This document shows, piece by piece, positions 1,740-60,560 of a stretch of DNA of 64,000 nucleotides. A model generated the notes under the pieces. That model ran no database searches. It was not told where the DNA came from and saw nothing but the letters and a program-made list of their open reading frames with translations. Each line of letters begins with the position of its first letter. The stretch's first letter is position 1. The position numbers were made by a program, and so were the translations under genes. The stretch is from Sphyrna mokarran (lineage: Eukaryota), in the NCBI GenBank assembly GCA_024679065.1, contig JAGIQG010000009.1, positions 107,384,001-107,448,000 on the forward strand, in the 5' to 3' direction.

Positions 1740-4700
1740 GTGTGTGTTCCTGTCAAACCTACTTTAGTAGTATGTTTTCGCTATAGGGGCAGTTGCTCTA
1801 CTGCTATGAGATCTAACCAGGTAAATGCTTCCAACGAACTTGTCACTTTTTTTGTGTGATCGGAAACCCGATTAGTATGAGCAATTATTTTAAAACACGC
1901 CATTTCCTTCAGAATTATACAACTGTTCCAATTTAGAAAGACACCATTAGGCCGTATGCCGGCTTTTCGTAGGAACAACTGATCTACTATCACTCGCTGA
2001 TCTTCCCCCCATTTTCAGCTAATAATCCAAATCAGTCTTGGAAACCTCGAGTAAATCTGATTCACTCACAATCTCAGGCAGTGTATTCCATATCTAACTT
2101 TATCGCGGCGTTTATCGCGAGGGGGATAGAATACAAAAGCAGGGAGATCTTGCTGCAACTATACAAGGCACTAGTGAGGCCGCAATTGGAGTACTGTGTG
2201 CAGTTTTGGCACCTTGTTTGCGTGAGGATATATTGGCCTTGGAAGGAGTACAGAGACGGTCCACCAAGCTGATACCGGAGATGAGGGCGATAGGTTACGA
2301 GGGGAGATTAAATAGACTGGGCCTATACTCGTTGTAGTTTAGAAGGCTGAGGGGGGATCTTATAGAGACTTACAAGATAATGAAAGGGCTAGATAGGGTA
2401 GAGGTAGAGAAAGTCTTTGCGCCTAGAAAGGAAAACAGAACTAGAGGGTACAGATTCAAATAAGCCGGGGGGGGGGGGGGGGGGTGGGGGGGGGAGGCAG
2501 TTTTAGAGCGGAGTGGAAGAGAAACTTCTTCACTCAAAGAGTGGTGAATCTCTGGAATTCTCTGCCCATTGAAGTGGTGGAGGCTGCCTCGTTGAATATA
2601 TTTAAGTCAGGGATAGGTTTATTTCTGATAGACAAAGGAATTAAGGGTTATGGGGAGAAAGCGAAAAAGTGGAACTGATCCACTTCAGATCAGCCATGAT
2701 CTTAATGAATGGCGGGGCAGCCTCGAAGGGCTAGATGGCCTACTCCTCCTCGTATTTCACATATTCTAACCACTCGAGTGGTAAAATATTTTCTTCCTGT
2801 CGCTATTGTCTTTTAGCTACATCACTTAGATTTGCCAATCATTTAAATCTGTGCCCTCTTGTTCTCGATCCTTCCACTAAAGGTACAGTTGTCACTATCT
2901 ACTCCTGCTAGGTCCCTTGAGATTTTGAATAAATGAAAAATCTTACCATAGCTTTCTCGTCTCCAAAGACAACCGTCCACCTTCCTTACTCACTATGAAA
3001 TGCCTAGCCCAATACATGAAGAAGATAATATCATCATAGAAACAGGCAAGACGATGGCCTAGTGGTACAGTCCCTAGATTATTAATCCAGAAACTCAGCC
3101 AATGTTCTGAGAATCCTGGTTCCAATCCCTTCTGGCAAATGTGGAATTCGAATTCAATAAAAGATGTCTGGAATTCAGAATCTACTGAACACCATGAAAC
3201 AATTGTTAGAAAAAGACGTCTGGTTTAATGATAACCTTTAGGGAAGGAAATCTGCCATTGTTGTCTGGTCTGGCCTACACGTAGCTCCAGATGCACAGCA
3301 ATATGGTTGACTCTCAACTGCTCTTTGGTAATTATGGATAAATGCCGGCCGGGCAGTGACACCCGTGACCCATGAATGCAAAAAAAAAGAGGAAGGAGGG
3401 CATTCGGCCTATCGAGTCCACACTAACTCTCAGACAATGTGCCCTACACTGCAACTTCATATGTTTACTACGATAATCACCCTAATCCACGTATTTTGGG
3501 ACACTAAGGGGAAATTCAACATAGTTAAGCATATTTTTGGATTCTGGAAGGAAATAGGAGTACCCGGAGGGAACTCACACAGACACGTGGAGAATATACC
3601 AACTCCACATGGATAGTTATCGAAGGCTGGAATTGAACATGGGTCCCTACCACTGTGAGGCAGCACCATATCCTTGCACTCATTATGCTCCTCGTCCATA
3701 TGTATCGCAATCAGTTTCTCTATGTTAGTGTTTAAGACCAATTTTATGATGTTTTAACAAGAAACTGATTCAAACAGTTATATTAATGTCGATATTATTT
3801 TTCTTTCAGTTATCCTGAGACTGAGAAGGTAAAAAAACTCATCTTATCAAATTGTTGATTATTCAGACCATAATGTGCAGAATTTTAAATTTAAACATCA
3901 TTTTGCTTCTTGCAGACAGTGCTGTGAAATTGATGCGATATCTGGTACGTGAATTGTATGCATTCTGCATTAATTACCTCACAGGTGGAGAAGGTGACAA
4001 AGAAGGCGTATAGTATGTTAGCTTTCATAGAAAAGGGTATAGAATATAAGAGTAGGAGTTTGATGTTGCAGTTGTATACAACTTTGGTTAGGCCTCACTT
4101 GGAATACTGCGCCCAGTTCTGGTCTCCGTACTATCGGAAGGATGTGGAGTCCTTGGAGAGAGTGCAGAGGAGGTTTACCAGGATGCTGCCTGGTATGGAA
4201 GGACTGTCCTATGAGGAACGATTAGATAGACTGGGGTTGTTTTCCCTTGAAAGACGTCGGCTTAGAGGGGATCTCATAGAGGTGTATAAGATTATAAGGG
4301 GTATAGATAGAGTAAATGGAGGTAAACTTTTTCCACCTTTAGAAATGGATAGGACGAGAGGTCATGGCCATAGGGTGAGGGGGGCTATGTATAGGACGAA
4401 TATTAGAGGGCAGTTTTTCACACAAAGGGTAGTGGGGGTGTGGAATGCACTGCCGAGTAAGGTGGTGGGAGCAGGCACGCTGGGGCTGTTTAAGGGTCTC
4501 TTGGACAGCCACATGAGCGGTATGCAGATAGAGGGATATGTTAGGACTGTTTAACTACGGCTTTTTTCCACAGGTAATTCGGTCCATAATTTGAGCACGC
4601 ATTCGGCAGGTGGTGCGGGTACAGCTCTTGGATGTTGATTCATGGGTTGCCTGGTACCTCATGTCGTATATGAGTGCTTTATGTGGACCACCTGAAGGGC

Positions 4701-7700
4701 ACCATGACAGCTCAGAGACTATCGATGTGGCTGTGCAGACACTTGGAATTGGGCCGGTGTCTGCGGGAGTTTGCGCGTTCTCCCCGTGGTTGCGTGGGTT
4801 TTCTCCGGGCACTCCGGTTTCCTCCCACAACCCAAAAATTCGCTCTTAGGCTGATTGGGTAACAAATTGTCCCTATGGTGAAAATTTTCCAAATTAGGAT
4901 TAATATATATATTATTATATAGGAATATTAAAATAGGATAATGTATTTGGTATTACGGTGGCGCGGGCTCGTTGGGCCGAAGGGCCTGTTTCCCGTGCTG
5001 TGTTGCTTAAAAAAAAAATTACTATTCCCGGCAAATTGAAAACAAATCTAAACTAAAAAAGTACATTTACAAATAGTTTCATTCGAATGAATTCAATTTC
5101 TGGTGCTACGCGTGTCTGTTATGTTTGTGGTTCTGACCCTCTCTGAATGCTATTCCCACAGCCGATCTACAGCCAGCGACACAGGTAAGAACGATTGGAT
5201 CACAACATGTTTGGTATGTGCAATTACATAGTTCTGATAACCAATGTCTTTCTGCTAATTTACTATATTTTCTTTCCTGCGATTGATATGCTCTATCCCT
5301 TCTCCGCTTATATTTCCTGAATATGCTTATGAAGTTTTGACTCCACAGGTGTGCGGGTTAGGTGGATTGTCCATGCTAAATTGCCCCTTGGTGTCAGTTG
5401 GATTAGGGTAAATAAATGACGTTATGGGGATATGGCCTGCGTGGTCGGTGCAGGCTCGATGGGCCGAACGGCGTCCTTCTGCAGTGTGTGATTCTATTCT
5501 ATGACTATGTCCAGCAAAATGGGAGAAATGTTTATACTTCCTATTAAAGTAGCGATTTCTTGACGATAGTTGCCAAACTTCTTGAAAACTTAAAATCACT
5601 TTAAAAAAACTTCCAAAGGCAAGGTCTGTATTCAAAAGACATAACTAAAATTGATGCAAACCACAAAAATTATATAAGACAAACAAACATTAACCTAAGG
5701 ACAAGGGAGGCCTTCGGATGGTCGAATAACTCCTATTCAGTGGTACAAGATCTGCAAAGATCTGAGGCACTCAGCCAAAATACAGTATGATTACAGCTTC
5801 TGTTATCTCAAATATATCTATAATTTAGCTAATAATTAGCTTAGATTCAATTTAATTCCGTGTTAACATGTCAGTCCAGTACAAGGCAGGTTACCTCAGC
5901 CAGTTGCAATACACTTCTTAACATAATATTTTATTTGTCCGTTTCATACCGGATATCTTCCCTTTGGCAAAACCCACTTCCTGGTTGCTGTGTTGTTAAA
6001 GTCGCTTCTACTGCTATTCCTTTCCCATAAGTGCATTGCCAAGACAATCAGATAAACAACACTCCGGACACATATATTTTTTCATGTCAGGATAATAGAT
6101 GCATCTACTTGATACATTATATTTCAATAACTGCCCCAGGATTTGAAAATAATAATGTTCATTCTGCTGGCTAATGGATTTCTGGCTGTTTAACGTTTTA
6201 ATCTTATCATTATTTCTTCAGCATTTGCTTTTTTGATTGAAGTGAACAAATACATTTAATGTTAAGATACATTTAATATATTAATGCAGAGTCACTTAAT
6301 ATTCCAATATGGACTTTAAGATCATACTTAATTCCTTTCAATACTGTTATTCCATTCATATAAGATCAAACTTTTAACATTGCCCTGTTAGGATCATAGA
6401 ATTCCTACAGGACTATGTTCTATTTGATCAGCCTGCATCTTGGCCCTATCTCCGTAACCCCACATGTTAACCCTGTTAATCCCCCTGACACTACGGGGCA
6501 ATTTAGCATGGCCGATCAAACCAACCAGCACATCTTTCAGTTTATGGAAGGAAACCAGAGCACCGGAGGAAACTTATACATACACGGGAAGAATATGCAA
6601 ACTCCACAGATAGTGACCCAAACCCGGAATTGAACTCAGGGCACTAGCGCTGCGAGGCAGCAGTGCTAACCACTGTGTCACCCTGCTACCCCTGGTGGAA
6701 TCATTTCAACTCTTCCCCACTACATTGTCACTATAAACTAAAGATCTGCCTATGGATCTGCAAGCTGACCTAAAAGCTCTTTCATAAAGTTAAGCCAGAT
6801 GTAACCACGATCAATAATGATGCTTAGCAGATGTATCGCTCATTAGCTCCAGCTCATCCAGTGAGCTGAAAGGCTCCTCTCTGTTTTGTTTTTAAGGATT
6901 GATATTTTCCCAATAGACATTGACCCACAAAATTCAAACCGCCCCCAAAATGTGCAGGACTATATTAAATTGCTAAGCTCAGTCAGAGTTGCAAGGCCTG
7001 AAATGAAATGAGTAGACTTATCTAAGTAAAGATCTTTCCAGAGTTTTGTGCGTCAGGATGTTGTTCAAGTAGTTCGGACAAAAGCAATGGCCCTCTTTGC
7101 ATTCTACTTGTGGTAACAGACAGAATTTCTGTGTGGTCCAAAAATGGTAGTTAATGGATAATGGTCCTTCAACAATGTGAATTTCTCCTATTCAGGAATT
7201 TATGAAATTTCTTTACTCCAAAAATGCTTCCCTTTCAATCTGGTAAGAGTTACTTTAGTTTTTCTCAAGGTTCAAGAAGCAAAAGCAATGTGTCATTCTT
7301 CACTTGATGCATATTTCTCTTAAATATTGTTAAAAAATAAGGAGATGCATTGCAAACTAATTGCAAGGATCAAAGTGCGTGACAGCTTCAGATTTAAACA
7401 ACTCTCAGTCCACTCAGGAACTGATCCATTGCTTTTCGAAATAATGCAGGAGTTCATCTGTTACCAAACGATTAGAAGGGCTGGAAGAAGTCCTTATGTG
7501 TCAGAATTGTCATAATTTCTGTGGCTTCTTGCTCACATTTATCTGTAGTAAACTTGGCTCAGATCAATTTTGCTGAAACATGGATTATCAGGTTGACTGC
7601 AACTACGCTCAGGGGACTGGGCACCAAAACATTCAGATATTTCGATTGCCGACGCAAAACAGTCAAAGTGCTCAGTATAGAAGCTTCATGGCTCTATACT

Positions 7701-8965
7701 TACATCAGAATCCCACGACTCAAAAATCCCTATTTTTTTCTACTAATATGCGCATTTTGCTGTGTTTTAGGAGCTACCTTGATTTCCACATACACAAGCT
7801 TCAGCCTCTCATTTATCACAGATAGCTGTACAATATGCTTTGAGGGCAAATTAATCATGTCTCCTTAGCCCGTTGGTTCTCTTAAGCACATGTTTCACAG
7901 GTGAAACATTTTCCTTTCTAATTTTTATTTTATCCAACTGTTCGCACTAAAATTCTTCTTCCTGAGTGGCTAGCCAGCATGTGTTCCTAGTCCTTGTCGC
8001 CAGGTTTTATGTTGTATTTTAGAGGTAGGATACTAGGGAGAAGGAAGGTTTAAAACAACTGAAGTTTATTTGCCGTGTCTGATCACTTGCATAGCTGATC
8101 GGCTCTCAGTTTCTCGTTCCAGGATGTATGGCCTCACTTCCAAAGAATATATTCAATCAACAGAGATTCAGTTTAAGTTTAAGTTTATTTATTAATGTCG
8201 CAACTAGGCTTTCATTAACACTTCAATGGAGTTACTGTGAAAATCCCCTACTTACCACTCCCCGGCGCCTGTTCGGGTTCACTGAGAGAAAATTTAGCCA
8301 AAATGGCCAATGCACCTAACAAGCACGTCTTTCAGCCTGTGGGAGGAAACCAGAGCACTGGGAAGAAACCCACGCAGGCGCGGGAAGAAGGTGCAGAGTC
8401 TGCACAGACATTGATCGAACCCAGGAATCGAACACCATCTCGGATTGTGAGGCAGCAGTGCTAACAATCTAACAAGAGCAAGAACCAATAAGAATTAACG
8501 CAAATATATGACAATATGGGGAAAAGATTTTTACATGAGGTGTACTTAAAATCTGGGAGGCACTGACTGAGAATGGCATGGAGAGAAATTTAATTGTGTC
8601 TTCAAAGATTGGAGATGGGATAATTCTCAGAAGTCAATATATTTGGAAGGTAACAACAGAAATTGCGGGACTGTTGAATTGTTCTTGTTGATCCGACATG
8701 GACACAACAAGACAAATATGTCCTTCTGTGTTGTAGATAAAACGCCATCAATCAATTCTCAAAGGGGAGAGCAGCCTATGATCCTCTGGGCCTGTGGCGA
8801 AGTTTACATACTATTTACATGTCTCAACACATCTACCCCAGCCTGGGCCACTACTGGCGATTTTAATCTCTTTCTCCGCCTGAACTCCACATCTTATCTT
8901 TTCTTGACAACACATTATTCAAATTCCTTTGTTTTTTTTTACCGTAGGATGCTGCAAACGTGTGA
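1632..8965 (+). CDS. Gene A (5'-partial): single-pass receptor, probable paralog of gene B. Exons 1632-1739, 3810-3828, 3916-3944, 5162-5184; terminal exon tentatively 8948-8965
   Basis: All exons have canonical AG/GT sites and matching phases (1-1, 1-2, 2-1, 1-0, 0-stop). Joined peptide: xKNNRNPSPILGLGGASVLLSITVIFLICGLCWQNK-VILRLR-RQCCEIDAIS-ADLQPATQ-DAANV*. Exon phases match gene B, including a 19-nt micro-exon. The terminal exon is the least certain part. Confidence 0.75.
2096..2770 (+). mobile_element. CR1 LINE 3' fragment
   Basis: LYKALVRPQLEYCVQFW and FFTQRVVNLWNSLP motifs, frameshifts, CR1 3' UTR; poly-G run at 2467-2494. Confidence 0.9.
3978..5016 (+). mobile_element. 5'-truncated CR1 LINE with V-domain-containing 3' UTR (composite copy 1)
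   Basis: ORF2 C-terminus LVRPHLEYCAQFWSP...FFTQRVVGVWNALP, stop at 4554. Followed by a unique UTR segment, the V-SINE body, a CR1-type tail and polyA. AATTAC flanks both ends (3972-3977, 5017-5022). Confidence 0.9.
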
Positions 8966-10146
8966 ATTGTCGTGGCTAAACTTAGACGCACTGGCAATTA
9001 AATCTATTTCTTTTTATTTTATTGCGATGATTATTAGGTGCACTCTAATTGTGGCATTGATTCCTTGCATAATAACAAAGTGAACACCAAAGAGAAGAAG
9101 ACAAGGAAAATGAACAATAACACAGATCATATCGAATATGCTACCATCAGCTGCAGCTATGGGAAGAAACTTGAAATGCTGCAATATCCAGCTCTTCACA
9201 AACCCTGATTCTCACTGAGTCGTATCTAGCGTACTGATTACCTTATTCTCTATTTCACTATCAATAATTAAGCTTGTTTAACGTTAACTGTGAATGTTTG
9301 TGAACATGCAGCTGTTCCTAAATTCCCAATTGTTTAGTATATCAACCTTGAAATTATTCAACTTGTAGAGACGCTGTGCCTGTTCAAGAATCCAATCCTT
9401 GTTCTCATGATTACATTGTACATTTTACCAGCACCGGGAAACAGAACAAGGAAAGGAAGGAGATCCACTGGGTCACTACTTGAAGAAAATGTATAAATCA
9501 GTCAGTGAAAATATCATTACGTGAATATTCCCGCTAATTTCATGAGAAAGGTTATTTGCTGTCTCCCTTGGTATTTGATTCAAGCAATCTTCCCAATGTA
9601 ATTTCATTATTGACAACCAATAGCAATCTAAGTATTTTCCCAAAATGTAATTATATGAGTACAGTTAACTGCTTTTAAGTACTTAGTCATTTTAACTCTG
9701 TGCTGCAAATCATAGTGTTCCATTAAATCCTGCAAATTTTGTGCTTGATATTTTCTCAGATCTATTGTCTCGAGTCACGCATGTAAGGGGAGTAGGATTC
9801 AGTATGATTTGGAGTAAATAGTTTCCCATACTATATCAAAAGGGAAAAGGGGAAAGTAGTTGATATTATAAACTGTCGAGTGTGTCCGATAGTGAATGTT
9901 TTATGTTTTTATAAAATTTTATGTTTTTATATAATTCTGTAAACCTGTAGTTCTATTGCTTGCACCTGAGTGGCCCTATATTCTTTAATAGTCATTAGTA
10001 TTCAAAATATCAGTCCATCTCAAATCATTTTCAATAAATTATATTTTATGAGAGGCGTTTTGACATACTATAATATGAGCTCCATGAATGGTAGAGTTGA
10101 GCTGAATAACCTACTTCTATTCCTATGGTCTTATGGTCTTACCATA

Positions 10147-11056
10147 AGGCGGAGAATGAGAGGAGATCTAATAGAGGTGTATAACATTATGAATTTTATA
10201 GATAGAGTGAAAAGTGGTAAGCTTTCTCCTAGGTTGGATACAATAATTACGAGGGGCCACGGGCTAAGGGTGAGTGGGGCGAGGTATAATTCGGATGTTA
10301 GAGGGAGGTTTTTCACACAGAGGGTGGTGGGGGCCTGGAATGCATTGCCAAATAAGGTGGTGGAGGCAGGCACGCTAGGGTTGTTTAAGAATCACTTAGA
10401 CAGGCACATGAGCGGACTAGAGGTGGAGGAATACAGGACACTTTTCTAAATAAAGATCAAGAGCCTTGGGACATTCCTGGGAATCAATTGATTCCTATGG
10501 ATCTTCCACTATATGTCATGGCTCACTTGCTTTATTTCTGCGCTTCTGGGGATTTCGTAAATGTCGGTCTAGTTTTGCATATTTATTGATGTCTTTTCTT
10601 TTACTTCACAGTTAATTGCTGACAACAAGAGGTATACACGCGATGGGTCGTGCGATGGCTGCTCTTGGATGTTGCCTCGAGAGTTGTCTAGTACTTCACG
10701 TCGTTAGTGTACGCTTAAACTGGAGCAGCTGATGGGCAACAATGACAACTCAGTGACTATCACTGTTTGCTTTGCAGATACATGGATTTGGGCCGGTATC
10801 TGCGGGAATTTGCACATTCTCCCCCTGATTGCGTGGGTTTACTCCGGGTGCTCTGGTTTCCTCCCACATCCCAAAAACGTGCTCTTAGGCTGATTGGTGT
10901 AACAAAGTGTCCCTAAATTAGTTTTCCCTCAATCTTCCCCAATAGGTGTAGACAAAGGTCATAGATAGAGGAGGGCAGTCATAATGTTAAAATGGCAGCG
11001 CGGGACCATTGGGCGGAAGGATCTGTTTCCCGTGCTGTATTGTTCTTTGATCTTTG
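10147..11056 (+). mobile_element. CR1 LINE 3' end with V-domain-containing 3' UTR (composite copy 2)
   Basis: RRMRGDLIEVYNIM...FFTQRVVGAWNALP, followed by the same UTR layout as 3978-5016. Confidence 0.85.
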
Positions 11057-11379
11057 TACACCGGTTATTGCCTGGAGTACTTCACAATCTCTCTTCTGAA
11101 TTACCTACATCTGTTTTTAAAGTTACCTCCCCTTTCCTATCAACCATCAGTAGTGTGAACACTTTCTCTCGAGCCACACGAAAAAGTCCTGTTAAAATCA
11201 TTAAATAAACACATTCAAGTCCATTCATGAATTTCTACTTTCCAAAGAATATAAACTAAATTTATTCAATCTCTCCTTGGAACCAACTCTTGGAACTTTC
11301 CTAAAATTCAGTTGCTGCTCTGTCCCTCATCCATCTCTCTGGTAAGTATAGACTTGACTGTTGAAGATATTTTTGGGCT

Positions 11380-11890
11380 GGTGAGTTGGGAAGAATGGTA
11401 GCCTCATTAGATAAAGAATTCAATTGCACAGAAAAGCTTGCAGGAGGGCTTTCCTGGGATGTTGCCAGGAAGATTGTAACTATGAGGAAAGATTGATTAG
11501 ACTGGGGATATTCCCAATGGAATAGGGGAAGGAGAGGAGAGACTTGGTTAGGATTGGAAAGTGGTGAACTACCTAGGTAGATTGAATGCTTACTTTAGCA
11601 GAGTGTTCAGCAACCATGAGGCATAGAAGTGACTGATAGAGAGGTTAGAGAAACAGTAATGGAACAATTATTCACCCAAAGGTTTATAGGCGGCTGTAAC
11701 TCACTGTCTGAAAGGGTTGTAGAGAAAACAAAATTCAATAAATTTCAAGAGTGATTGGATATTCACCTTAAGTGCGGTAACTTGCAGAGTTACGGGCCGA
11801 ATGCTGGAAAGTGGGACAAGATTGGATGGCCCGTTTTGCAGGTGGCGATCACAGTGTGCCAATGTGGCCGTAAATTTTCTATGATTCTAT
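11380..11890 (+). mobile_element. Highly degenerate CR1 3' end
   Basis: Remnants of YEERLIRLG, TQRxxGxxNSL and the tail. Confidence 0.65.
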
Positions 11891-12055
11891 ACTTGTCCCA
11901 CATTTCCCTTTTGAGGGAACGAATCTTGACCGTACGAGAAGAATCCCCTTCTATGAAGATAGCTCACTGTCCCTTCATTACCAGCTATTCTGGAAAATCT
12001 CAGCGCATCTGACAGCATCTGTGGGAAGATTTCGAGTTCAGAGGCCCTTCGTCAG

Positions 12056-12275
12056 AGGTGTTCCCAAGTGTCTACTGCCCTTATCCTTCTAGATGGAAAT
12101 GGTCGTGAGTTTGGAAGGTGCTGTCTAAGAATCTTTGGTGAATTTCTGCAATGCATCTTGAGGAGAGTACACACTGCTGCTACTGAGTCGCGATGGTGGA
12201 GGGAATGAATTTTTGTGGATGTGGTGCCAATCAAGCGGGCTGCTCTGTCAGGGATGGTGCAAGGTTCTTAAGTAT
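12056..12275 (-). mobile_element. CR1-group LINE fragment of a distinct family
   Basis: IHSLHHRDSVAAVCTLLKMHCRNSPKILRQHLPN; related to 30790-31400. Confidence 0.65.
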
Positions 12276-13043
12276 CAGTCGCCTTTAAATATACAGTTCA
12301 GATAGCCTTCTGAAAACGCTTCGAGCCGAAGCGCTTGGTCTCAAAATATTTTAAATAAGCTCATCGGGAAATGCTCTGCATATACAAGAACGCGTATGTG
12401 AAACCACATTCCAATACTCATCAAAACATTGAAATGAAATGCTCCCAGTGAGAAGTGATTTCCAGAGTATGGAAGTCCCGCAATACAATAGGATTGTTTT
12501 ATAATTTCACCTTTGTTTTATATTTGTCATCAGCGTTTAACCATTAGTGCTCGACAATAGGCAATGCCTGACATCACAAAATATCGTAAATGCCATGGAT
12601 TGCATTTTAGAATATAATTAGTATACCTTCCCTGTGAGAAAGTTAAATATTTTCAATCTTTGCATTTCATTTCCGCTTGCAAATTTTTGTGGTTCTAGAA
12701 TTGCATCACGTGCCAACATTGAGGCTGCTACCAGAAGAATCGATTGCAATCGCCAATTTAGGTGGCATAGTGGTTAGCACTGCTGCTTCCTAGTGCAAGG
12801 GACCTGAGTTCAGTTCTCGGCTTGGGTCTGTGCGGAGTCTGCACGTTCTTCTCGAGTCTGCGTGAATTTCCTCTGGGTACTCCTATTTCATCCCACAGTC
12901 CAAAAACATGCTGATTAGGTGGATTGTCCATGTTAAATTTTCCTTTAGTATACCCGAACACTAGTGTGGAATGTGGTGACTGGGCGATATTGACAGAAAC
13001 TTCATTGCAGTGTTAATGTAAACCTACTTGTGACACTAATAAA

Positions 13044-13340
13044 GCAGATACATGGATTTGGACCTGTTATTGTGGGAGTTTGCGCATTCTCCCCGTGCTT
13101 GCGTGGGTTTTCTCCGGGTGCCCCGGTTTCCTCCCACATCCCAAATATGTGCTCTTAGGCAGATTGGCAGAACAAATTCTTGCTAAATTGTCTCAAATTT
13201 AGTTTTCATACATAGATCTATAAACATAGACAGGGATGACAGGGATCATGGGTAGAAGTGGGAACATCGAGGTGGCGTCGCGGGCTCGTTGGGCCGAAGG
13301 GCCTGTTTCCCGTGTTGTTTTGTTCTTTGCTCTTTGTTCT
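13044..13340 (+). mobile_element. 5'-truncated 3' UTR of the composite CR1 family (copy 4)
   Basis: Starts gcagatacatggatttgg and matches 10774-11056 and 42677-42955, including the (tgttctt)n tail. Confidence 0.8.
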
Positions 13341-28405: not shown

Positions 28406-31400
28406 GTGAGTGAATAATCGCGCCCTGATTGTTTAAATATTGTAAGAAAACCGTGGGAGACAACATTTCTTTCGCTGCACTATTAACCCAAAATCTCAGC
28501 TATTGTTCTGGGGACCCGGGTTCAAATCCCGTCGCGGCAGGTGATGGAATTTGAATTCAATAATAATAACTGGAATTAAGAATCTATTGGGGGGCAGCAC
28601 GGCGGCACAATATTTAGCACTGCTGCCTTACAGCGTCAGGGACCTGGGTTCAATTCTGGGTCACTGTTTGTGTGGAGTTTGCACATTCTCCCCGTGTCTG
28701 CATGGGTTTCATTCAGGTGCTCCGGTTTCCTCCCACACTCCAAAGGTGTGCGGATTAGGTTGATTGCTAAATTCACCCTCGTGTCAGAGGATTAGCAGGA
28801 TAAATATGTGGGGTTATGGGAATAGGATATGGGTGGGATTGTAATTGGTGCAGACTGAATGTCCTCCTTTTGCACTGTAGAGATTTTATGATGACCATGA
28901 AACCATTGGCAATTGTCGCGGAAAAGGCATCTGGTTCTCTAATGTCCTTTAAGGAAGGATACCTACCGTCCTTGCCTTTTCTGGTCTACATATGCCTCCA
29001 GAGCCACAGTAATGTGATTGACTCTCAACTGCCCTCGGATACCTGGAGTTGGGCAATAAATGCTGGCCAGCCAGAGATGACAATGTTCCATGAATAAGTA
29101 AAACAATTAGACAGACCAAGTAAATGATCGCATACATTTCTAAAACACGAGTAAAGCATACCTTAATACACTGCTACATTGGTCTAAGGGAAGGTAGCGA
29201 TAAAGACCAACATTTGCTGTCCACGTTTATAATTACACAGACCCACCAACTTATACTTAGCATCAAGTTCCCCTTTTAACTTGTGTTTTGCAAAGCATTA
29301 CGAGGTACTAACCGAATTCGGAAGTGTGGTAGCAATAATTCAAATGAACATCTGAATGACTTGGTATTTTTCATCCACTCACATTATAAAAACTATATTG
29401 ATATATTTGGAATGCTTTTTGTAGGAAATTATTAAACCGCGTGCTTACATTTCTTTGTCTTTTTTTACGTCTATTATCTAAAGAAATGCCTTGCTTAGTT
29501 ATGTACCTGGAACTAATAACACACAATTGTTAGTGAGATTTTTTTTTAGCGATTCTGTAGTCTCTGCAAAGAATGCATCCAATTTAGTAACTGTCGAGTC
29601 ATTTAGACCATGAATAGTCCCGTGTATTTTTGATAATCCTTAAACCTACTGTTGTTTCTTCCTCACACCTAAGACATTTATTCCTTCCACTACAATTGCC
29701 AGTAAAATATTCCAACTTGTTGCGACCTATAGGGAATAAATTCCTACAGCATTTCCGATTTTTTGTGCTGTTTGTAATTTGTGAATACCCCAAAATCCTG
29801 TCACAGACTGACTCCAGTTAAATAAAAACAGATTACTGGATTCTGGAATCTGAAACCAAAAGAGAAAATGCTGGAAAATCTCAGCCGGTCTGGCAGCATC
29901 TGTAATCGTCTTTGACAAATGGTCACCTCGACTCGAACCATCAACTCTTTTCTCTCCTTTCTGCCAGAGCTGCTAAGATTTTCCAGCGTTTTCTCTTTCG
30001 GTTACAGACTGACTCCAGTTTGCGCAATCTATTATAATTTTAGATCATTGGACCATATGTTCTTTTAGATATTCCTGTCAAAGAAATCCCAGTTGTCAAC
30101 AGTTCCTCAAAGTTCATTCCCTTCAATTCAGGGTTTAACCGTGCAATCCATACCTCTTCTGACATACCTGCAATACCCCTGATACAATCTCACCAGGCAA
30201 GCTATGGTTTTCAAATCGCCAATCTTGAGTATTTGGTTTTGCTTCCTGCAATGCAGCCAAGTTGACAAATACTTTACACAAATAATTGCTGCAAATGGTA
30301 CAATTAATCAGAAGTTACAAAACTACTCTTTCTAATAATCTTTTGCTCTAACATTTGTGTTTAATATCAAGATATTTTTAAATAAAAGATTTGCAAAGCA
30401 TTGCCAGTGATACTATCGAGTTATATCTAACCTCAGATGCCTGGTGTTAACAACTCAAATCAACTTTTGGGTCCAATTCTCCCGGTAATTCATGTTATTT
30501 CTTCTTTTCAAAATGAGCCAATACGTTGATAGAATTGTGTTGCTAGAAAACAAACATGCAACCAAGTGTGCGGTTTAGAACAGTAACTGTAATACTTTGT
30601 TGCTTATCGCAGAAGCATACCTTCTGTCAAAAATCGTATTGTCGCAAATTTAGGGTCGGGATCAGAGAGATATGTGCATTTCTTGTTCATTGTGTAAACA
30701 ATGTCCATAGTATTTCTTTATTATTGCTACACGCAGTAATAATCGGTAAGTTTCAACTCAATCCAAACATGAGTCATTGTTTTTAAGGATTACTTTACAG
30801 GATATGGGCGAGGCTGGCTAGGCCAACATATATTGCCCACCATAGTTGCCCTTGCCAAGGTAACGGTGAACTGTGTTCTTGAACCACTGCAACCCATGAG
30901 CAGACTTATAGTGGTGTTAGGGAGGGAGTTTTAGGATTTTGACTAAGCGACAGTGAAGGAATAGCAATGTATTAGCAAGTCAGGGTGATGATCGGCAGTT
31001 GATGATGTTGCTATGTATCTACTGTCCCTGTCATTCTCGATGTTTGGACCCTGCTGCCCGAAGAACACTGATGAGTTCAGGCAGTGCAAATTGTTAATGG
31101 TACACAAGCTGCCACTATTCCTTGGTGGCGGAACGGTTCGAATGATTGTGGAATGCATAGCAGTCAAACAATTTGCTTTGTTTTGGATGGCGCCAAAACA
31201 TGTTGGACGTGCAGTCATTTAAACAAGTAGAGAGTATCACATCCCTTGGACCTTGTGGATGGTGTACCAGATTTTGGGCACTCAGGAGGTGAATTAATCG
31301 ACCTTGGGGTCCTAGCATTTGACCTGCTCTTGTAGCTAAAGTATTTATATCGCTACTCTAGTTCAGTTTCTGGTCAACGGTAATCCTCACGATGCTGATT

Positions 31401-37174: not shown

Positions 37175-37213
<39 letters not shown>

Positions 37214-40200: not shown

Positions 40201-43200
40201 TCTTTACGTCTGTTTATGGTCGTCTTGTGTTGATAATCAATTAGTCCAGGAGCGATTTTACGGCCTCGCTCGGGCGAGACGGACATTTTCATTGTGGGGC
40301 CTTCGCCCACGCGGATTTCATGGCGGGCGAGGTAATACAGTCCTGAGTGTTTTGTAGAATGATAAGGATTTGTCCCTTCGTAGCCTCCATTGTACTAATA
40401 GCAATTCAAGCGTTTGATCAGTGTATTTTCCATAAGCACATGCTCACTTTATGAATTGGTTTCTCTGTATACTGATATAAATAGTTTTTAATAAAATAGC
40501 TACATTTTGTCTTTCCGTTTAAAGTTGAAATTAACCAAACGAATTTCTGATCAACTCAACAAATTTTGATCATTGTGGTTGGCCACTACAGCGGATCAGC
40601 CAAAAAAATCTAGAGTTTCACCAGCAGCTGAGGGGCAAGGTCAGCCAAATTGCGTTCCAACACATTGAACAGTGAAGCATCTTAAATATTAACTAGCTAC
40701 AACACACAAACAAAAAGCCAACAAAGTCGTACACATACTAAATCTGAGTCTCACTTGTCTTCATATCCAAGGCCAGAGTATCTTACAACTTCAAAAGTAC
40801 TTAATTGATTTTAAAATCTCTTTGGAGATCCAGAGGTTTGCAAAACTTTTCTTTCTTCTTTAAAGTTTACTTTAGACGCTGAGCAGGCATATCTCTAAAC
40901 ATGAGTGCACATAGAACTTCAACAGGCAAAATAGTTCGCAAGTGCAACATTACTGAAAAGCTACTTGCTGGAACACATGCGAATGTGCGACTCGACATTG
41001 AAAATATTTATTTGTCCAAAACATCAGACAAATTTAGGTTTGATTTTGATTTGATTTGATTTATTAATGTCCCATGTATTGCGATGAAGTAAAAGAAATG
41101 TTTCTTGCGCACTATGCAGACAAAGCATGCCATTCATAGAGAAGGAAACAGGTGTTACAGTCATAACTAGGTTGTAGAGAAAGATCAGCTTAATGCAAGT
41201 TAGGTCCATTCATAAGTCTGAGGGCAGCAGGGAAGGTGTCCTTCAGTCGGTTAGTAAGTGACCTCAGACTTTCGCATCTTTTTCCCGATGGAAGAAGGCG
41301 AGAGAGAGAATGTCTGGGGTGCATACTATCCTTAATTATGCTGGCTCCTTGGCGAGGCAGTGGGAAGTATAGACAGAGTCAATGGATTGGAAGCTTGTTT
41401 GTGTGATGTAATGAGCTACATCTATGGTGAGATGAATTGTCTTTAAAATATGGATTAATCATGTTCTCCCTTTGCCTGAAACAGAAGTGCCTCGGAGAAA
41501 GAAAGTGCGGGAAGTGCGAGATCGTGCTAAACATCAGGTAAATGTGTGTCTGACTATTTTTTAAGTTTATTTATTAGTCACAAGTAAGGCTGTGAACTTA
41601 CTGTGAAATTCTCCTAGTCGTCTCACTCTGATGCCTGTTCTAACCAGCACATCTTTCAGAGGAAACCCAAGCCCTCAAAGGAAACCCACGAGACATGGGG
41701 AGTACGTGCAAACAGAAAGTGATCCAAACTGGGAATTGAACCTGGGTCCTGGCGCTGTGAGGCAGTAATGCTAACCACAGTACTCTATCCACTCCAAAAT
41801 ATGACGAGGTCCGATCACACCTGAAATATATATCTTCACAGGCACATTTTTGTGTATTGGGATTACATAGAACACAGAACATAGAGTTATACAGCACAGT
41901 ACAGGTCCTTCGCCCTCAATGTTGTTCCCAGCTATGTCCAACCCAAGATCAAGCTATCCCTCTCTCTATCATTCTGGTGTGCTCCATGTGCCTATCCAAT
42001 AACCGCTTGAAAGTTCCTAAACTGTCCCACTCCACTACCACAGCAGGCAGTGTATTCCACAGCCTAACCACTCTCTGAGTGAAGAATCTACCTCGTACAT
42101 CCCCACTCTATCTCCCACCATGAACCTTATAGTTATGCCACCTAGCAACCGCTACATCCACGTGAAGAAATAGTCTCTGAACATCCATTCAAATAGCACG
42201 AGGAATCACGGGCTTAGGGTGGGGGGGGGGGGGTAAAGTATAATTTGGATGCTAGAGAGAGTTTATTCCACATAGAGGGTGGTGGGGGTATGGAACGCGC
42301 TGCCAAGTAAAGTGGTGGAGGCAGGCACTCTGGAGTTATTTAAAAGATACTTAGATGGGCACATGAATAGAATGGGAATGGAGGGATATAGAAAACTGAT
42401 TTAAAATAGGGATCATGAGCCTTGGGAGTCTCTGGGGAGTGTGTAAACGAGTCCCTAGGAAGTGTGTAAATAGTCGATGATATTGATGTATTTGTTTTAT
42501 CCTACAGGTACTTTCGTCCGCCTTGTTGTCTAACAACAGGCATACACGCGATGGGTCGTGAGAGGGCTGCTCTTGGATTTTTTTCGAGAGTATCCTCGTG
42601 CTTCACGTCGTCAGTGTACGCTTGACCTGGACCATTTGATGGGCAACACGACAGCTCAGTGACTATCGCTGTGCTGTGCAGATTTGGGCCTGTATCTGTG
42701 GGAATTTGTGCATCCTTCCCGTGCTTGAGTGGATTTTCTCCGGGTGCTCCGGTTTCCTCCCACATCCCAGAGATGTGCTCTTAAGCTGATTGGCAGAACA
42801 AATTCTCCGTAAATTGCCTCAAATTTGGTTTCAATGCATAGATCTATAACCATAGACAGAGATCACGGGTAAAAGTGGGAATATCGAGGTGGCGGCTTGG
42901 GCTCGTGGGGCCGAAGGGCTTGTTTCCCGTGCTGTTTTGTTCTTTGTTCTTTGTTATTCTATCTATCCGCCTCATCATCTTATAAACCTCTATTCAGTCG
43001 CCTCTCATCCTCGTCCGCTCTAAAGGGAAAAGCTCCAGCTCCCTCAACCTTTCCTCATAAGACCGACCCTCCAAACCAGGCAGCATCCCGAGAAATCTCC
43101 TCTGCACTCTCTCTAATGCTTCCACATCCTTCTCATAGTAAGGTGATCATAACTGAACACAATATTCCAAATGTGGTCTCACCAACGTTCGGTATACTTG

Positions 43201-44933
43201 CAGCATAACCTCTCGGATCTTAAACTCAACCCCCTGTTAATAAACGTTAACACACTATAAGCCTTCTTTACTACTCTATCCACTTGAATGGCAACCTTTA
43301 GACATCTGTGCATATGAACTCCAAGATCTCTCTGTTCCTCCACATTCCTCAGAACCTTGCCATTGACCACGTAAACCACATTCAAGTTTGTCCTAACAAA
43401 ATGAATCACCTGGCACTTATCAAGATTAAACTACATTTGCTATTTTTCGATCCAGCTCTTCAGGCTATCAATGACCCTTTGCAGCCTGCACGAATCTTTC
43501 ACCTCATCCACTACTCCACCAATCCTACTGTCATCAGCAAATTTGCCAACCCACCCTTCAGCCCCCTCTTCTACGTCATTGATAAAAATCACAAATAACA
43601 AAGGTCCCAGCACTGATCCCTGTGGTACACCGCTAGTGACTGGCCTCCAGTCTGAAATTTTTCTTTCCACCATCACCCTCTATCTTCTTTGAGACAGCCA
43701 GTTACTTATCCAATCGGTCAAATTTCCTTCTACCCCACACCTCCCTACCTTCTTCATGCGCCTACATGGGGAACCTTGTCAAACGCCTTTCTAAAATCCA
43801 TCTTTATGACATTAACTACTCTACTTCTGTCTACACACTTAGTTCCCTCCTCAAAGAATTCAATCAAATCTGGGAGGCAGGCACTTTTCAAAACAGTGCT
43901 GACTATCCCGGATTAAACTGCATCTTTCCAAATGGTCGTAAATCCTAACTTTCAGGACCTTTTCCATTAACTTACCGACCACCGAAGTAAAACTAACTGG
44001 CCTATAATTACGAGGGTTATTCCTACTTCCTTTCTTGAAGAGAGGAACAACATTCACCACTCTCCAGTCCTCTGGCACTATCCCCGTGGACAGTGAGGAC
44101 TCAAAGACCAAAGCTAAAGGCTCCGCAATCTCACCTCTTGCCTCCCAAAGTATCCTAGGATGTATCCCATTTGGCCTAGGGGACTTATTGACCCTTAGGT
44201 TTTTCAACATTGCTAATACATCTTCCCTCAGAACATGTATCTCCTCTATCCTTTCAGACTGTATCACGCACTCATTCTCAAAACATGGCCCCTCTCCTTA
44301 GTGAACACTGAAGAAAAGAATGATGACCTGTTGCTCTGAGACGGTGTCCTCTGGTCCCAGAATCTGCCACAAAAGCAGACACTTCTCAACATCTACCCTG
44401 TTAAACAACATGAGAATCGTTTACATTGTCTCTCATTTTTCTAAACTCCATTGAACACAGACCCTACTATTTAGTTTATTCTCGAAAGAAAATCCCCCCA
44501 TTGCGGGGATCAACCTAATGAACTTCTTCTGAACAGCCTCCAAAACACATATATCTTTTCTGAGATAAAAGACAAAAGCTGTTAAGTTAATCCCGGTAGA
44601 AGGAATTCTGGATGGCAAAACAATTTAGCGTTTTGTCTCTAAGGGCTAAGATAGAAACTGTTTCCACAACAATTGTTGCTCTTCAGGAACTTGGTAAACA
44701 ATGATACTCTGTATATCTACTTTTCTTTCTACCTTTCTTTGCAGAAATGCGGTTGAATTATGTGAATGAAATGTAATATTAGCTCTGTAATATAATCTAG
44801 CGTTATGGTAATATGATTTTTACCTGACTGTTGCTCCTTCACTTTAAACGTTTTTTCTTACTTTGCTCAGACGGGGACTGTTGCTATGATTTTGGCGCCT
44901 TGTCTATCTGTAACTCCATACAACGTCCTATAA
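28345..44933 (+). CDS. Gene B: NKp30/NCR3-like single Ig V-set type I membrane receptor. Exons 28345-28405, (33082-33108 optional), 33179-33505, 33840-33974, 36734-36752, 36866-36900, 41485-41537; terminal exon at 44745 or 44871
   Basis: Continuous reading frame across canonical splice sites: MATERWAMTSLFLLISSCLE-G(EDATTKQNG)TETATSPVVQSPGSVHIFQGGSVILNCSF...WRRD...ESGIYYCEIEILGRPKQSGNGTSVTVQ-HVCDKPVAVNNLLLDWIWIAVAGGVTLLIILVLLIVIIFLARRNK-AYALLV-RECSSFDCAKEP-EVPRRKKVREVRDRAKHQ-(KCG* or TGTVAMILAPCLSVTPYNVL*). The NKp30 resemblance is judged from remembered motifs, not from a search. Confidence 0.85.
28470..29100 (+). mobile_element. Second tRNA-SINE family with a V-SINE nested at about 28590-28890. 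Other copies at about 3050-3390(+), 35300-35640(+), 36060-36390(-), 50450-50800(-), 60255-60690(+)
   Basis: gggttcaaatccc B box, then atgaccatgaaacc, gaaggaaatctgcc and gggcaataaatgctggcc. Confidence 0.75.
29820..30003. mobile_element. Penelope-derived inverted-repeat element
   Basis: Arms of about 48 bp (gaaaatgctggaaaatctcagc / gctaagattttccagcgttttc), flanked by the 17-bp direct repeat ACAGACTGACTCCAGTT. Confidence 0.65.
30790..31400 (-). mobile_element. CR1-group LINE 3' fragment (same family as 12056-12275)
   Basis: Similar degenerate ORF; its 3' end (gttggcctagccagcctcgcccatatcc) is shared with the second SINE family. Confidence 0.6.
33082..33108 (+). CDS. Gene B possible 27-nt frame-preserving micro-exon (G-EDATTKQN)
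   Basis: tttgtcacag|...aacg|gtattg, phase 1-1. Creates an N-G-T sequon across the junction. The downstream intron is only 70 nt. Confidence 0.5.
33179..33505 (+). CDS. Gene B Ig V-set exon (V and J-like G strand in one exon)
   Basis: Polypyrimidine tract plus cccctag| acceptor and CAG C|gtaagg donor. B-strand Cys (LNCSF), C-strand Trp (SWRRD), F-strand GIYYC and G-strand GNGTSVTV are all present. Confidence 0.95.
33840..33974 (+). CDS. Gene B stalk and transmembrane exon
   Basis: tttcaacag| acceptor and AAAG|gtaatt donor. Encodes the uncharged TM WIWIAVAGGVTLLIILVLLIVIIFLA followed by the RRNK stop-transfer. Confidence 0.93.
34455..35150 (-). mobile_element. CR1 LINE 3' fragment
   Basis: VHQSLNVSMQVQQVIKKAN on the minus strand; CR1 UTR. 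Confidence 0.85.
36990..37225. repeat. (TG)n microsatellite with degenerate flank
   Basis: Seen directly. Confidence 0.95.
37570..37895 (+). mobile_element. Full-length V-SINE (HE1-like)
   Basis: ggcggcacggtggcacagtggttag head, ggttcgattc B box, V-domain, CR1 tail. Confidence 0.9.
41040..41420 (-). mobile_element. Rex1/Babar LINE 3' fragment
   Basis: Homologous to 750-1190 (LLPSGKRCESL); (TCAAA)n tail. Confidence 0.8.
41865..44312 (-). mobile_element. CR1 LINE, interrupted by the 42191-42955 insertion
   Basis: NYRPVSFTSVVGK, GVPQGSVLGPLLFVIFIND and KFADDS motifs. Confidence 0.92.
42191..42955 (+). mobile_element. Composite CR1 with V-domain 3' UTR (copy 3), nested in an older minus-strand CR1
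   Basis: ORF2 end (VVGVWNALPSKVVEAGTL), UTR and tail. ATTC duplicated at 42187-42190 and 42956-42959; removing the insert restores the host CR1. Confidence 0.88.
44325..44590 (-). mobile_element. CR1 fragment
   Basis: YLRKDICVLEAVQKKFIRLIP. Confidence 0.75.
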
Positions 44934-56238: not shown

Positions 56239-56244
56239 TGTATT

Positions 56245-60477: not shown

Positions 60478-60560
60478 GAGAAGTTTCACAACAAAATCCA
60501 ACAGGTTTATTTGGTACCATGACCTTTCAGAGTGTTGATCCTTCATCAGGTGAGTGGCTA
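60478..60560 (-). mobile_element. Penelope pseudo-LTR fragment with a degenerate hammerhead core, inserted in a SINE
   Basis: Minus strand reads cacCTGATGAaggatcaacactctGAAAgg...ccaaataaacctgttgga. A related inverted pair lies at 55100-55200. Confidence 0.6.

Follow-up and report, generated by a model that had tools for sequence, protein, structure and literature searches.

A V domain behind a likely decayed tRNA-like SINE head in the 3' UTR of a CR1 LINE lineage of Sphyrna mokarran: probable capture and retention

That a LINE can carry pieces of a SINE has a precedent in BovB elements. SINEs with a V central domain (V-SINEs) range from cnidarians to vertebrates (PMC4824008, PMC5804259), and according to a 2016 paper conserved SINE domains of this sort had not been found in LINEs. 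Sharks and rays possess the V-SINE HE1 and its partner LINE HER1 (listed in PMC3747384), and a tRNA-like head, a V domain and a CR1-type tail, with the tail common to SINE and LINE, are found both there and in the DNA studied here; HER1, compared by its table row only, is described as tail-sharing, whereas the present LINE carries a head remnant and the V domain itself. Capture and amplification of a V-SINE body by another mobile element is described for the MITE MER6/MER6A (PMC6887750), whose captured V domains cluster apart from those of SINEs, as they do here. However, MER6 is a non-autonomous DNA transposon that moves as DNA and captured body and tail without the head, whereas the present carrier is a coding retrotransposon with the V domain inside its reverse-transcribed RNA and with a head remnant kept. 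Sequence shared between SINE bodies and LINE UTRs is also known from RTE and Vingi 5' UTR pieces in SINEs and from the 5' UTRs of Ingi-3_AC and R4-1_ADi, which contain a Ceph-like piece, with SINE-to-LINE recombination suggested for Ingi-3_AC (PMC5786205); these cases concern 5' UTRs of RTE, Vingi, Ingi and R4 and a flow mostly from LINE to SINE, unlike the CR1 3' UTR, the V domain and the probable SINE-to-LINE flow reported here, and according to that survey no sequence resembling a conserved SINE body had come to light. Alu/L1 and small-RNA/L1 chimeras likewise unite SINE and LINE sequence in one retrotransposition event (bioRxiv 10.1101/2025.02.02.635956), but each of these is one isolated insertion in which the SINE precedes the LINE piece on its 5' side; in the present element the SINE follows ORF2 on the 3' side, and the chimera went on to replicate as a lineage. 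With canonical vertebrate CR1 (PMC13343379) the present element has the ORF2 C-terminus, 5' truncation, tail stem-loop and short terminal repeats in common; the text of that source has a single match for 'SINE' and one for 'UTR', and says nothing on what 3' UTRs contain. A search confined to the literature found no report of a V domain in a LINE, and two V motifs had no match in the searched supplement of a 2026 survey, whose consensus set is deposited on Zenodo.

The window, that is, the whole 64,000-nt stretch analysed, contains four copies of the element, each 5'-truncated, so that the data cover its 3' half. Alignment bore out the coordinates and order given for them in an earlier note on this DNA (3978-5016, 10147-11056, 42191-42955 and the truncated 13044-13340): the order of parts, from the end of ORF2 through a long UTR and the V domain to a CR1 tail, is common to copies 1-3 (Table 1), and the distance from stop codon to V domain, put at about 200-350 nt, measured about 210 nt in copy 1, 355 nt in copy 2 and 295 nt in copy 3. 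The four copies have four different 5' ends and a single 3' end, as expected for 5'-truncated target-primed insertions. Of the 12 CR1 3' ends in the window, three have a long V-containing UTR (about 420-570 nt) and the other nine have about 35-75 nt, so that this 3' UTR, with its SINE-derived and hairpin modules, is about ten times longer than those of its neighbours. Copy 4 adjoins a free SINE (about 12752-13043) at the latter's 3' end. Head remnant, long hairpin and codon-level conservation of head and V domain were not part of the earlier note.

Table 1. Features of the four V-bearing CR1 copies and their surroundings (positions in the window)
Feature	Positions	Strand	Basis or remark
Copy 1, left putative TSD	3972..3977	.	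AATTAC, 6 nt
Copy 1, ORF2 C-terminus, 5'-truncated	3978..4554	+	frame open to stop 4552-4554
Copy 1, pyrimidine tract and CAG, splice-acceptor-like	4562..4573	+	5' edge of shared UTR block
Copy 1, 'unique segment', a long and imperfect RNA hairpin	4581..4688	+	predicted fold; z -5.06 sense, -0.71 antisense
Copy 1, A-box region of decayed tRNA-like SINE head, without B box (deleted)	4697..4749	+	weakest of three head matches
Copy 1, V domain with lead-in	4750..4872	+	tree; by-eye match to published V-SINEs
Copy 1, AT-rich spacer	4873..4956	+	subfamily-specific
Copy 1, CR1-type tail stem-loop, then A run	4957..5016	+	tail profile; fold z -2.7
Copy 1, right putative TSD	5017..5022	.	
Copy 2, ORF2 C-terminus	10147..10449	+	stop 10447-10449
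Copy 2, variable segment	10450..10611	+	162 nt; pyrimidine tract and CAG at its end
Copy 2, long hairpin	10629..10716	+	z -1.86 sense, +0.5 antisense; 8/200 shuffles equally stable
Copy 2, decayed head (B box deleted) and V domain	10734..10912	+	
Copy 2, spacer and CR1-type tail, short terminal repeats	10913..11056	+	no convincing TSD
Copy 4, end of head remnant, V domain, spacer, tail	13044..13340	+	5'-truncated within decayed head
Host CR1 of another family, split by copy 3	41864..44140	-	short UTR without V domain
Copy 3, left TSD, within host antisense CR1	42187..42190	.	ATTC
Copy 3, ORF2 C-terminus	42191..42404	+	frameshifted G run, internal stop; terminal stop 42402-42404
Copy 3, variable segment	42405..42507	+	pyrimidine tract and CAG at its end
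Copy 3, long hairpin	42537..42624	+	z -4.63 sense, -0.97 antisense
Copy 3, decayed head and V domain	42641..42808	+	best head match; B box and another ~9 nt deleted
Copy 3, spacer and CR1-type tail, short terminal repeats	42809..42955	+	
Copy 3, right TSD	42956..42959	.	ATTC

The best 120 of the 2774 relatives of the copy 1 ORF2 fragment are bird RT-type proteins (44-54% identity), presumably CR1 elements, and the fragment is highly similar to the RT-bearing family of the window; no Pfam match was obtained within its 191 aa, and in no copy does the sequence reach back as far as the RT domain. The CR1-type tail profile matches all four copies, the tails fold with z values of -2.7, -2.8, -0.6 and -2.1 (copies 1-4), and copy 1 ends in an A run, not in repeats. 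Thus ORF2 affinity, a 3' stem-loop with a short-repeat end, and variable 5' truncation with short or no TSDs all place the element with CR1. With V-SINEs it shares the V central domain, but it lacks a tRNA-derived head in which the A and B boxes are intact and, instead of a short non-coding unit starting at the head, the unit reaches ORF2 in three of the four copies. In a tree of 12 of the 13 ORF2 pieces, the upstream half of the host CR1 being left out, the ORF2 ends of copies 1-3 form one clade (98/97; 72/77 on the 215 nt common to all rows). ORF2 shows coding constraint, with divergence concentrated at third codon positions: differences at positions 1/2/3 number 14/17/36 over 92 codons, and 6/5/18 and 6/7/14 over 38 codons each, and dN/dS is about 0.34, 0.11 and 0.17 in the three comparisons.

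The V domain had been described as standing without a tRNA head, which the alignment corrects. About 70 nt upstream of it, copies 1-3 show a decayed match to the tRNA-like head of the free SINEs of the window, which we take to be HE1, and copy 4 starts within the 3' part of this head. The B-box motif is present in 14 of 17 free heads vs none of the four LINE-borne copies, and copies 1-3 have the same B-box deletion. A 31-column profile of 17 free heads (of 23 free V hits, six were left out, their heads not being visible) ranked the three LINE-borne sites 11th, 16th and 17th of 127,938 positions, all higher positions being SINE heads by membership of the training set or by eye, and its scores were reached by 0, 1 and 7 of 2000 shuffles. 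The best site, in copy 3, matches at 21 of 31 columns, and eight of the ten mismatches are transitions. The match is short (about 30-42 nt) and the 31-column length was picked after the alignment had been seen; with 20, 45 or 52 columns the profile misses at least one of the copies, a gapped HMM test was equalled by 209, 34 and 13 of 1000 shuffles, and pairwise alignment by 138, 9 and 15 of 2000. ARAGORN found no tRNA anywhere in the window. The B-box-less stretch ahead of the V domain is therefore likely, judging from sequence, to be a decayed SINE head and, because the V domain sits behind such a head, a LINE would have captured a SINE. The opposite direction, suggested in the earlier note, would make a LINE 3' UTR of this type the source from which V-SINEs arose. 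LINE sequence can turn into a SINE body, as the RTE 5' UTR did in Ceph-SINEs (PMC5786205), and in some of their states the head and V lead-in carried by the LINE look, by eye, more like frog V-SINEs than like the free SINEs of the window, and therefore the LINE-borne version may be old. However, a decayed head with the B box deleted is a derived state, nine of the 12 CR1 ends in the window have no V domain, and the literature records V-SINEs from cnidarians, molluscs and insects; the suggestion did not hold up, and with head remnant, B-box loss and distribution all against it we treat a LINE source as ruled out, leaving it scarcely any probability.

The LINE-borne V domains are 71-76% identical to the free-SINE consensus of the window, and the V core matches, in a by-eye comparison, V-SINE consensus sequences published for frog and fish. 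Against 18 free V domains (five of the 23 hits were left out as short or fragmentary) they form one clade (100/99). Independent SINE insertions beside CR1 copies would have left V junctions that differ between copies; the junctions and the B-box deletion proved to be shared and, with the V and ORF2 clades and the TSD of copy 3 described below, lead us to reject such insertions. Head and V domain together are 84-86% identical between copies (150/175, 139/166, 142/167), vs 83-86% at ORF2 codon positions 1 and 2 (p 0.56-0.85, no difference) and 53-63% at position 3 (56/92, 20/38, 24/38; Fisher p 1e-5, 1e-4, 5e-3). V identity is 82-87% between subfamilies, near the 89% seen inside one subfamily (copies 3/4). 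The spacer 3' of the V domain has 51-65% identity between subfamilies, for a random baseline of 53%, and 85% between copies 3 and 4. As head and V domain are conserved like codon positions 1 and 2 and unlike position 3, this comparison suggests constraint inside the LINE. A V core of nine pairs keeps 9, 9, 9 and 8 pairs in the four copies; head and V domain as a whole fold no better than shuffles (z -1.6 to +0.1), their consensus fold has two-sided changes at 3 of 50 pairs, and for these two reasons no global structure is claimed.

High V identity may alternatively stem from exchange between copies. According to this explanation the V domain was captured but is a passenger, its identity being due to gene conversion or template switching, either between LINE copies or with an unsampled SINE subfamily, in line with the recombination hot spot model argued in PMC5804259. 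The V tree pairs copies 1 and 2 (95/87), whereas the ORF2 tree (89/83) and the hairpin (83% identity vs 65-67% for the others) pair copies 2 and 3, and the UTR looks like a patchwork in which the shared block is flanked on either side by segments that do not align. However, the ORF2 and V trees do not differ significantly (AU p 0.43), the LINE-borne V domains do not mix with the 18 free ones, and exchange requires crossovers on both sides of head and V domain in each lineage while the tail is conserved too. We consider a passenger V domain unlikely.

From the TSDs AATTAC (copy 1) and ATTC (copy 3), movement as one unit had been proposed. Both repeats lie at zero offset. AATTAC has a chance rate of 0.55-2.8% with fuzzy ends and on this rate alone stays putative; a TSD of at least 4 nt arises in 8.5% of random site pairs (±2 nt fuzz), and ATTC by itself would often be chance. 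ATTC is independently confirmed, because the flanks of the antisense host CR1 overlap by exactly these 4 nt against two of four reference CR1s (of the other two, one was shifted in register by 4 and the second failed to align the left flank); the host reading frame is continuous across the site when the four bases are counted once. The flanks of copies 2 and 4 gave only off-register 4-5-nt matches, which were treated as chance. The validated TSD of copy 3 thus brackets ORF2 end through tail, and movement as one unit stands for this copy. This TSD also argues against the idea that hairpin, decayed head, V domain and tail are a separate non-autonomous element joined independently to already diverged CR1 ORF2 lineages. 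For that idea speak the segment between stop and acceptor-like motif, which is 19, 162 and 107 nt long in copies 1-3 and in copy 1 not alignable with copies 2 and 3, as well as copy 4 without ORF2 and copy 2 without a TSD. But all three hairpin-bearing copies include an ORF2 end upstream, these ends form a clade, and the divergence of hairpin and spacer is about that of third codon positions. A separate module is quite improbable.

The 'unique' segment ahead of the head was found by nhmmer only in copies 1-3, and a covariance model run with filters off gave three strong hairpin matches in the window, with the next best at 13 bits; no further copy was found there by either method. Of the copy 1 structure, 28 of 33 pairs are kept in copy 3 vs 20.8 expected (p 0.0008), covariation values were reached by 33-36 of 500 shuffles, and three of six directional pair-retention tests are non-significant (p 0.25-0.46). 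The segment is thus modelled as a sense-strand hairpin with mixed covariation support. No known RNA family reached the gathering threshold in the window, and two weak matches (E up to 5) within 3900-13400 lie outside the element. Pyrimidine tract and CAG stand at the same place in copies 1-3 (background 0.9 per kb per strand); the sequence upstream of them is retained in all three copies, and the motif is acceptor-like by sequence only. Foreign sequence between ORF2 and head, this motif included, would be accounted for by read-through (3' transduction), in which a CR1 master stood upstream of a genomic V-SINE whose compatible tail took over, the unique segment being captured flank; SINE and LINE tails in the window are both of CR1 type, and the tails of the copies score similarly against either. 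However, the tail HMM (E up to 20) detected nothing in the unique segment, where inspection by eye had suggested a decayed original CR1 tail, and the post-V spacer has no clear homology to the post-V region of free SINEs (4, 70, 20 and 32 of 200 shuffles, only copy 1 being as low as 4). Read-through is very improbable, and it would be a variant route to the same capture, not another outcome.

We therefore favour, at a probability of roughly 0.7, the explanation that a CR1 lineage took up a V-SINE whose remnant head and V domain, together with the hairpin, likely act in cis on the LINE RNA; capture of a SINE body kept over long divergence, one of the two origins considered in the earlier note, is supported by the shared junctions, the V and ORF2 clades and the validated TSD, and with more weight than that note gave it. 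Capture likely occurred once, and the V core has likely been kept under selection in the LINE. One ancestral active CR1 would have gained a sense-oriented V-SINE upstream of its tail, by SINE insertion into the UTR of the active master or by template switch. Loss of the B box would have silenced the internal Pol III promoter, which if intact would yield a short RNA carrying the LINE's own tail. The lineage would then have split into three or more subfamilies, one represented by copy 1, one by copy 2 and one by copies 3 and 4, while ORF2 was still coding and head and V domain were under purifying selection. That this selection acts on RNA structure or protein binding aiding transcript stability or assembly of the retrotransposition particle, so that what benefits a SINE also serves the LINE, has slightly less than even odds. 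More tentative is the proposal that the LINE domesticated a SINE: it would have lost the B box and kept head remnant and V domain, beside an RNA hairpin of conserved structure, under protein-tight purifying selection across at least three diverged subfamilies, and the V domain would be a portable cis-acting retrotransposition element; if true, this would be the first described conserved SINE domain maintained within a LINE.

What keeps SINE central domains conserved over hundreds of millions of years is debated, and three models, SINE-LINE interaction, recombination hot spot and host benefit, have been put forward. A replicating CR1 lineage that has no working Pol III promoter and conserves its V domain at codon level uncouples this domain from transcription by Pol III and suggests that its benefit arises at the RNA or retrotransposition stage. 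In genome annotation, V-bearing copies would appear as CR1 plus a separate SINE fragment and inflate SINE counts. A V-bearing LINE would offer a natural test of what conserved SINE cores do: its synonymous ORF2 sites are a built-in neutral clock that SINEs lack, and the function of the V domain becomes testable in an autonomous element with and without it.

The window has a GC content of about 42% and is rich in repeats, with numerous fragments of CR1-type LINEs and 27 matches to the V domain. Alignment confirmed the four V-bearing CR1 copies (copies 1-4, the last truncated) that the earlier note had located and gave them one common order, which in copies 1-3 runs from the end of ORF2 through a variable segment, a hairpin, a probable decayed SINE head, the V domain and a spacer to a CR1-type tail. 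In copy 1, about 190 codons of ORF2 are open up to the stop codon, and 2774 relatives of this protein were found, the best 120 of which are bird reverse transcriptase (RT)-type proteins of 44-54% identity that we take to be CR1 proteins. Twelve CR1 3' ends were examined: in nine, which lack V, the tail stem follows the end of ORF2 at a distance of about 35-75 nt, and in the three containing V (copies 1-3) the distance is about 420-570 nt. The central block within the 3' UTR is a V domain, as had been proposed, and by eye its core recurs in the consensus sequences published for V-SINEs of frogs and fishes (supplements of PMC6887750 and PMC5804259). The V-bearing CR1 lineage is real, on the evidence of four copies from one window, and its element behaves as a CR1 LINE and does not qualify as a V-SINE in membership tests.

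Positions of the features in the window
Feature	Position (strand)	Remark
V-bearing copy 1	3978-5016	ORF2 stop 4552-4554; pyrimidine tract + CAG 4562-4579; hairpin segment 4573-4696
V-bearing copy 2	10147-11056	ORF2 stop 10447-10449; tract + CAG 10600-10617; junction 10146/10147
V-bearing copy 3	42191-42955	ORF2 stop 42402-42404; tract + CAG 42496-42513
V-bearing copy 4	13044-13340	junction 13043/13044
CR1 split by copy 3	41864..44140 (-)	other family
Young short-UTR CR1	45377-46498	RT-containing frame open
Young short-UTR CR1	56245-57365	junction 56240-56245
Young CR1, 3' fragment	13713-13859	147 nt
V-less CR1	26266-25195 (-)	
Free V-SINEs, set A (examples)	8401(-), 12834(+), 16402(+), 17016(+), 20758(-), 56049(+), 61788(-), 62666(-)	
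Free V-SINEs, set B (examples)	504(-), 20452(-), 28674(+), 37657(+), 59198(+)	
Abutting SINE pair	near 20540	
V-SINE pieces	39768(-) / 39853(+)	head to head
Exon-like pieces around copy 1	3810-3828, 3916-3944, ~5161-5183 (+)	19, 29, ~23 nt
Further exon-like candidates	36734-36752, 36866-36900	19, 35 nt
Inverted pair	38585-38774 / 40382-40565	68% identity
Tandem duplication	22032-22187	80-nt period
Decayed repeat	36988-37225	~88-nt period
Dispersed repeat families	3051-3324, 28473-29095, 60252-60674; 745-1130, 41045-41403	

Copy 3 was inserted within an antisense CR1 belonging to another family, and its host flanks were mapped one by one onto four reference CR1s. With two of the four, both flanks covered the same 4 positions, which are exactly the ATTC duplication, and the frame of the host CR1 is continuous once these positions are counted a single time; with the remaining two, the register was off by 4 in one and the left flank did not align in the other. 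A 4-nt match such as ATTC, taken alone, is frequently expected by chance, and it is the flank mapping together with the frame that identifies it as a real target-site duplication (TSD) spanning ORF2 end to tail. The earlier suggestion that this copy moved as one unit was therefore upheld, and the putative 6-nt TSD of copy 1 has a chance rate of 0.55-2.8%; inspection of the flanks of copies 2 and 4 gave no TSD. Each of the four copies has a 5' end of its own and all share one 3' end, the pattern that truncated LINE insertions would give.

In a tree of 12 CR1 rows, the ORF2 ends of copies 1-3 formed one group (support 98/97, 564 columns); when the tree was limited to the 215 columns common to all rows, support fell to 72/77. 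In a tree that included 18 of the 23 free V domains, the four carried by LINE copies clustered apart from them (100/99), and the hairpin segment occurs in the window only in copies 1-3. Judged from these sequences, the V-bearing copies appear to have one origin. The segment, described earlier as unique, forms one long imperfect stem with a folding signal in the sense strand only (z of -5.06, -1.86 and -4.63 for copies 1, 2 and 3, against -0.71, +0.54 and -0.97 in antisense); 1 of 200 random 101-mers from the window reached z -4. Among the 34 pairs of the consensus, four showed two-sided and nine one-sided change. Covariation of the three sequences was not significant by column shuffle (33-36 of 500), random placement of the observed substitutions gave p values of 0.0008, 0.02 and 0.03 in three comparisons with copy 1 and of 0.25-0.46 in the other three hairpin comparisons, and no Rfam family matched. 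The 5' edge of the block shared by copies 1-3 is a pyrimidine tract followed by CAG; in copies 1 and 3, GT follows directly, which gives the look of an acceptor and a donor back to back.

According to the earlier note the V domain lacks a tRNA head, which does not hold, as alignment with 17 free SINE heads revealed a likely decayed head in copies 1-3. These copies track the free head from its first bases on through the A box and its surroundings; a stretch of about 18 nt that spans the B box is then missing, and the match resumes at the V lead-in; the B-box motif is present in 0 of 4 LINE-borne copies versus 14 of 17 free heads. With a 31-column profile trained solely on free SINE heads, the three head sites ranked 11th, 16th and 17th among 127,938 positions, every site above them being a SINE head and the best other site scoring lower. 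Their scores were matched by 0, 1 and 7 of 2000 dinucleotide shuffles, and by 6, 4 and 10 of 2000 with a 36-column profile; profiles of 20, 45 and 52 columns each failed for at least one copy, also against 2000 such shuffles. A gapped HMM was significant for copy 3 (13/1000 shuffles) and copy 2 (34/1000) and not for copy 1 (209/1000). The LINE-borne head is likely homologous to the SINE head, in view of its position, its collinearity and the predominance of transitions among the mismatches (in copy 3, 8 of 10). A tRNA-type head minus its B box is a derived state, which argues for flow from SINE to LINE, and the proposal that a LINE UTR was the source of the V domain falls. By eye, some stretches of the head and V lead-in in the LINE copies are closer to frog V-SINEs than to the free SINEs of the window, a possible sign that the donor was another or a more ancient SINE family.

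Differences in ORF2 fall preferentially at third codon positions in three copy pairs (36/67, 18/29 and 14/27; p 0.0005, 0.001 and 0.036), with dS of 0.64-1.46 and dN of 0.16-0.22 between copies, and therefore the copies descend from lineages that split while coding. In the same pairs, head plus V are 84-86% identical, which equals codon positions 1 and 2 (83-86%), and head plus V exceed both position 3 (53-63%, p 1e-5 to 5e-3) and the post-V spacer (51-65%, random baseline 53%). Within the single subfamily of copies 3 and 4, spacer and V are 85% and 89% identical; since the V of these two is already at 89%, the 82-87% between subfamilies leaves little lineage change. The simplest reading is that head and V would have been held by selection. 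The main rival is that V identity came from exchange between copies: V and ORF2 trees do place copy 2 with different partners, but this conflict is not significant (AU p 0.43). The shared V junctions, the single groups formed by V domains and by ORF2 ends and the validated TSD of copy 3 favor the earlier note's other alternative, a LINE that captured a SINE and kept it over long divergence.

Most likely, an active CR1 would have acquired a sense-oriented V-SINE within its 3' UTR, upstream of the tail. Loss of the B box would, by established promoter rules, have silenced Pol III transcription inside the LINE, and the element, with the anatomy described, would have diversified and continued to insert by target-primed reverse transcription, as is established for such elements. 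The rates suggest that selection retained the head remnant and V, and the selected property might, speculatively and at somewhat less than even odds, be an RNA-level benefit for the LINE transcript. Capture and co-mobility by themselves are considered highly probable, and the fuller account including constraint has a probability of roughly 0.7.

Other elements were observed in the window. The free V-SINEs presumably resemble HE1, which makes a shark or ray the probable host. They comprise two types (sets A and B) with head and V in common and different tails (CR1-type versus an AATAAA-rich end), which points to tail swapping inside one genome; in the head-to-head pieces the shared head region is partly inverted. 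A young short-UTR CR1 family has two copies, truncated in a similar way at the 5' end, whose identity across 1122 nt is 98.9%, and its 3' fragment is 99% identical. Several elements (copies 2 and 4, a young CR1 and a SINE pair) begin right where some other SINE or LINE ends on its 3' side, hinting at an insertion preference for AT-rich tails. The V-less CR1 on the minus strand shares its terminal repeat type with the V-bearing family and may be related to the element as it was before the capture, with a sister position unresolved in the tree. Exon-like pieces with good acceptor and donor sites around copy 1 suggest that it may sit sense-oriented within an intron of some gene, and comparable candidates occur elsewhere. 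The inverted pair, with a 101-mer of z -5.7 at 38588, is possibly a MITE-like element; the tandem duplication contains a dinucleotide repeat, and the dispersed families show 67-79% identity.

A Repbase survey of SINE-LINE similarity reports that SINE bodies contain 5' parts of RTE and Vingi and that a Ceph-like piece occurs in the 5' UTRs of two further LINEs; it states that nothing resembling the conserved bodies had been found (PMC5786205). The MER6 MITE captured a V-SINE (PMC6887750), a parallel to the probable capture of V by the CR1. The excerpts of a vertebrate CR1 survey, whose consensus set is deposited on Zenodo, give no description of such a V-bearing UTR (PMC13343379), and HE1/HER1 are tabulated in PMC3747384. 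PMC5499810, PMC11481361, PMC13295347, PMC7245038 and bioRxiv 10.1101/2025.02.02.635956 served as context only. No report of a V domain inside a LINE was found in the literature searched, which misses most subscription papers, and an unannotated Repbase or Dfam consensus is possible. The distribution of V has been documented, with RNA stability named as a possible function (PMC4824008). A V domain conserved inside a coding retrotransposon bears directly on the question of why the central domains of SINEs are conserved and renders it testable.
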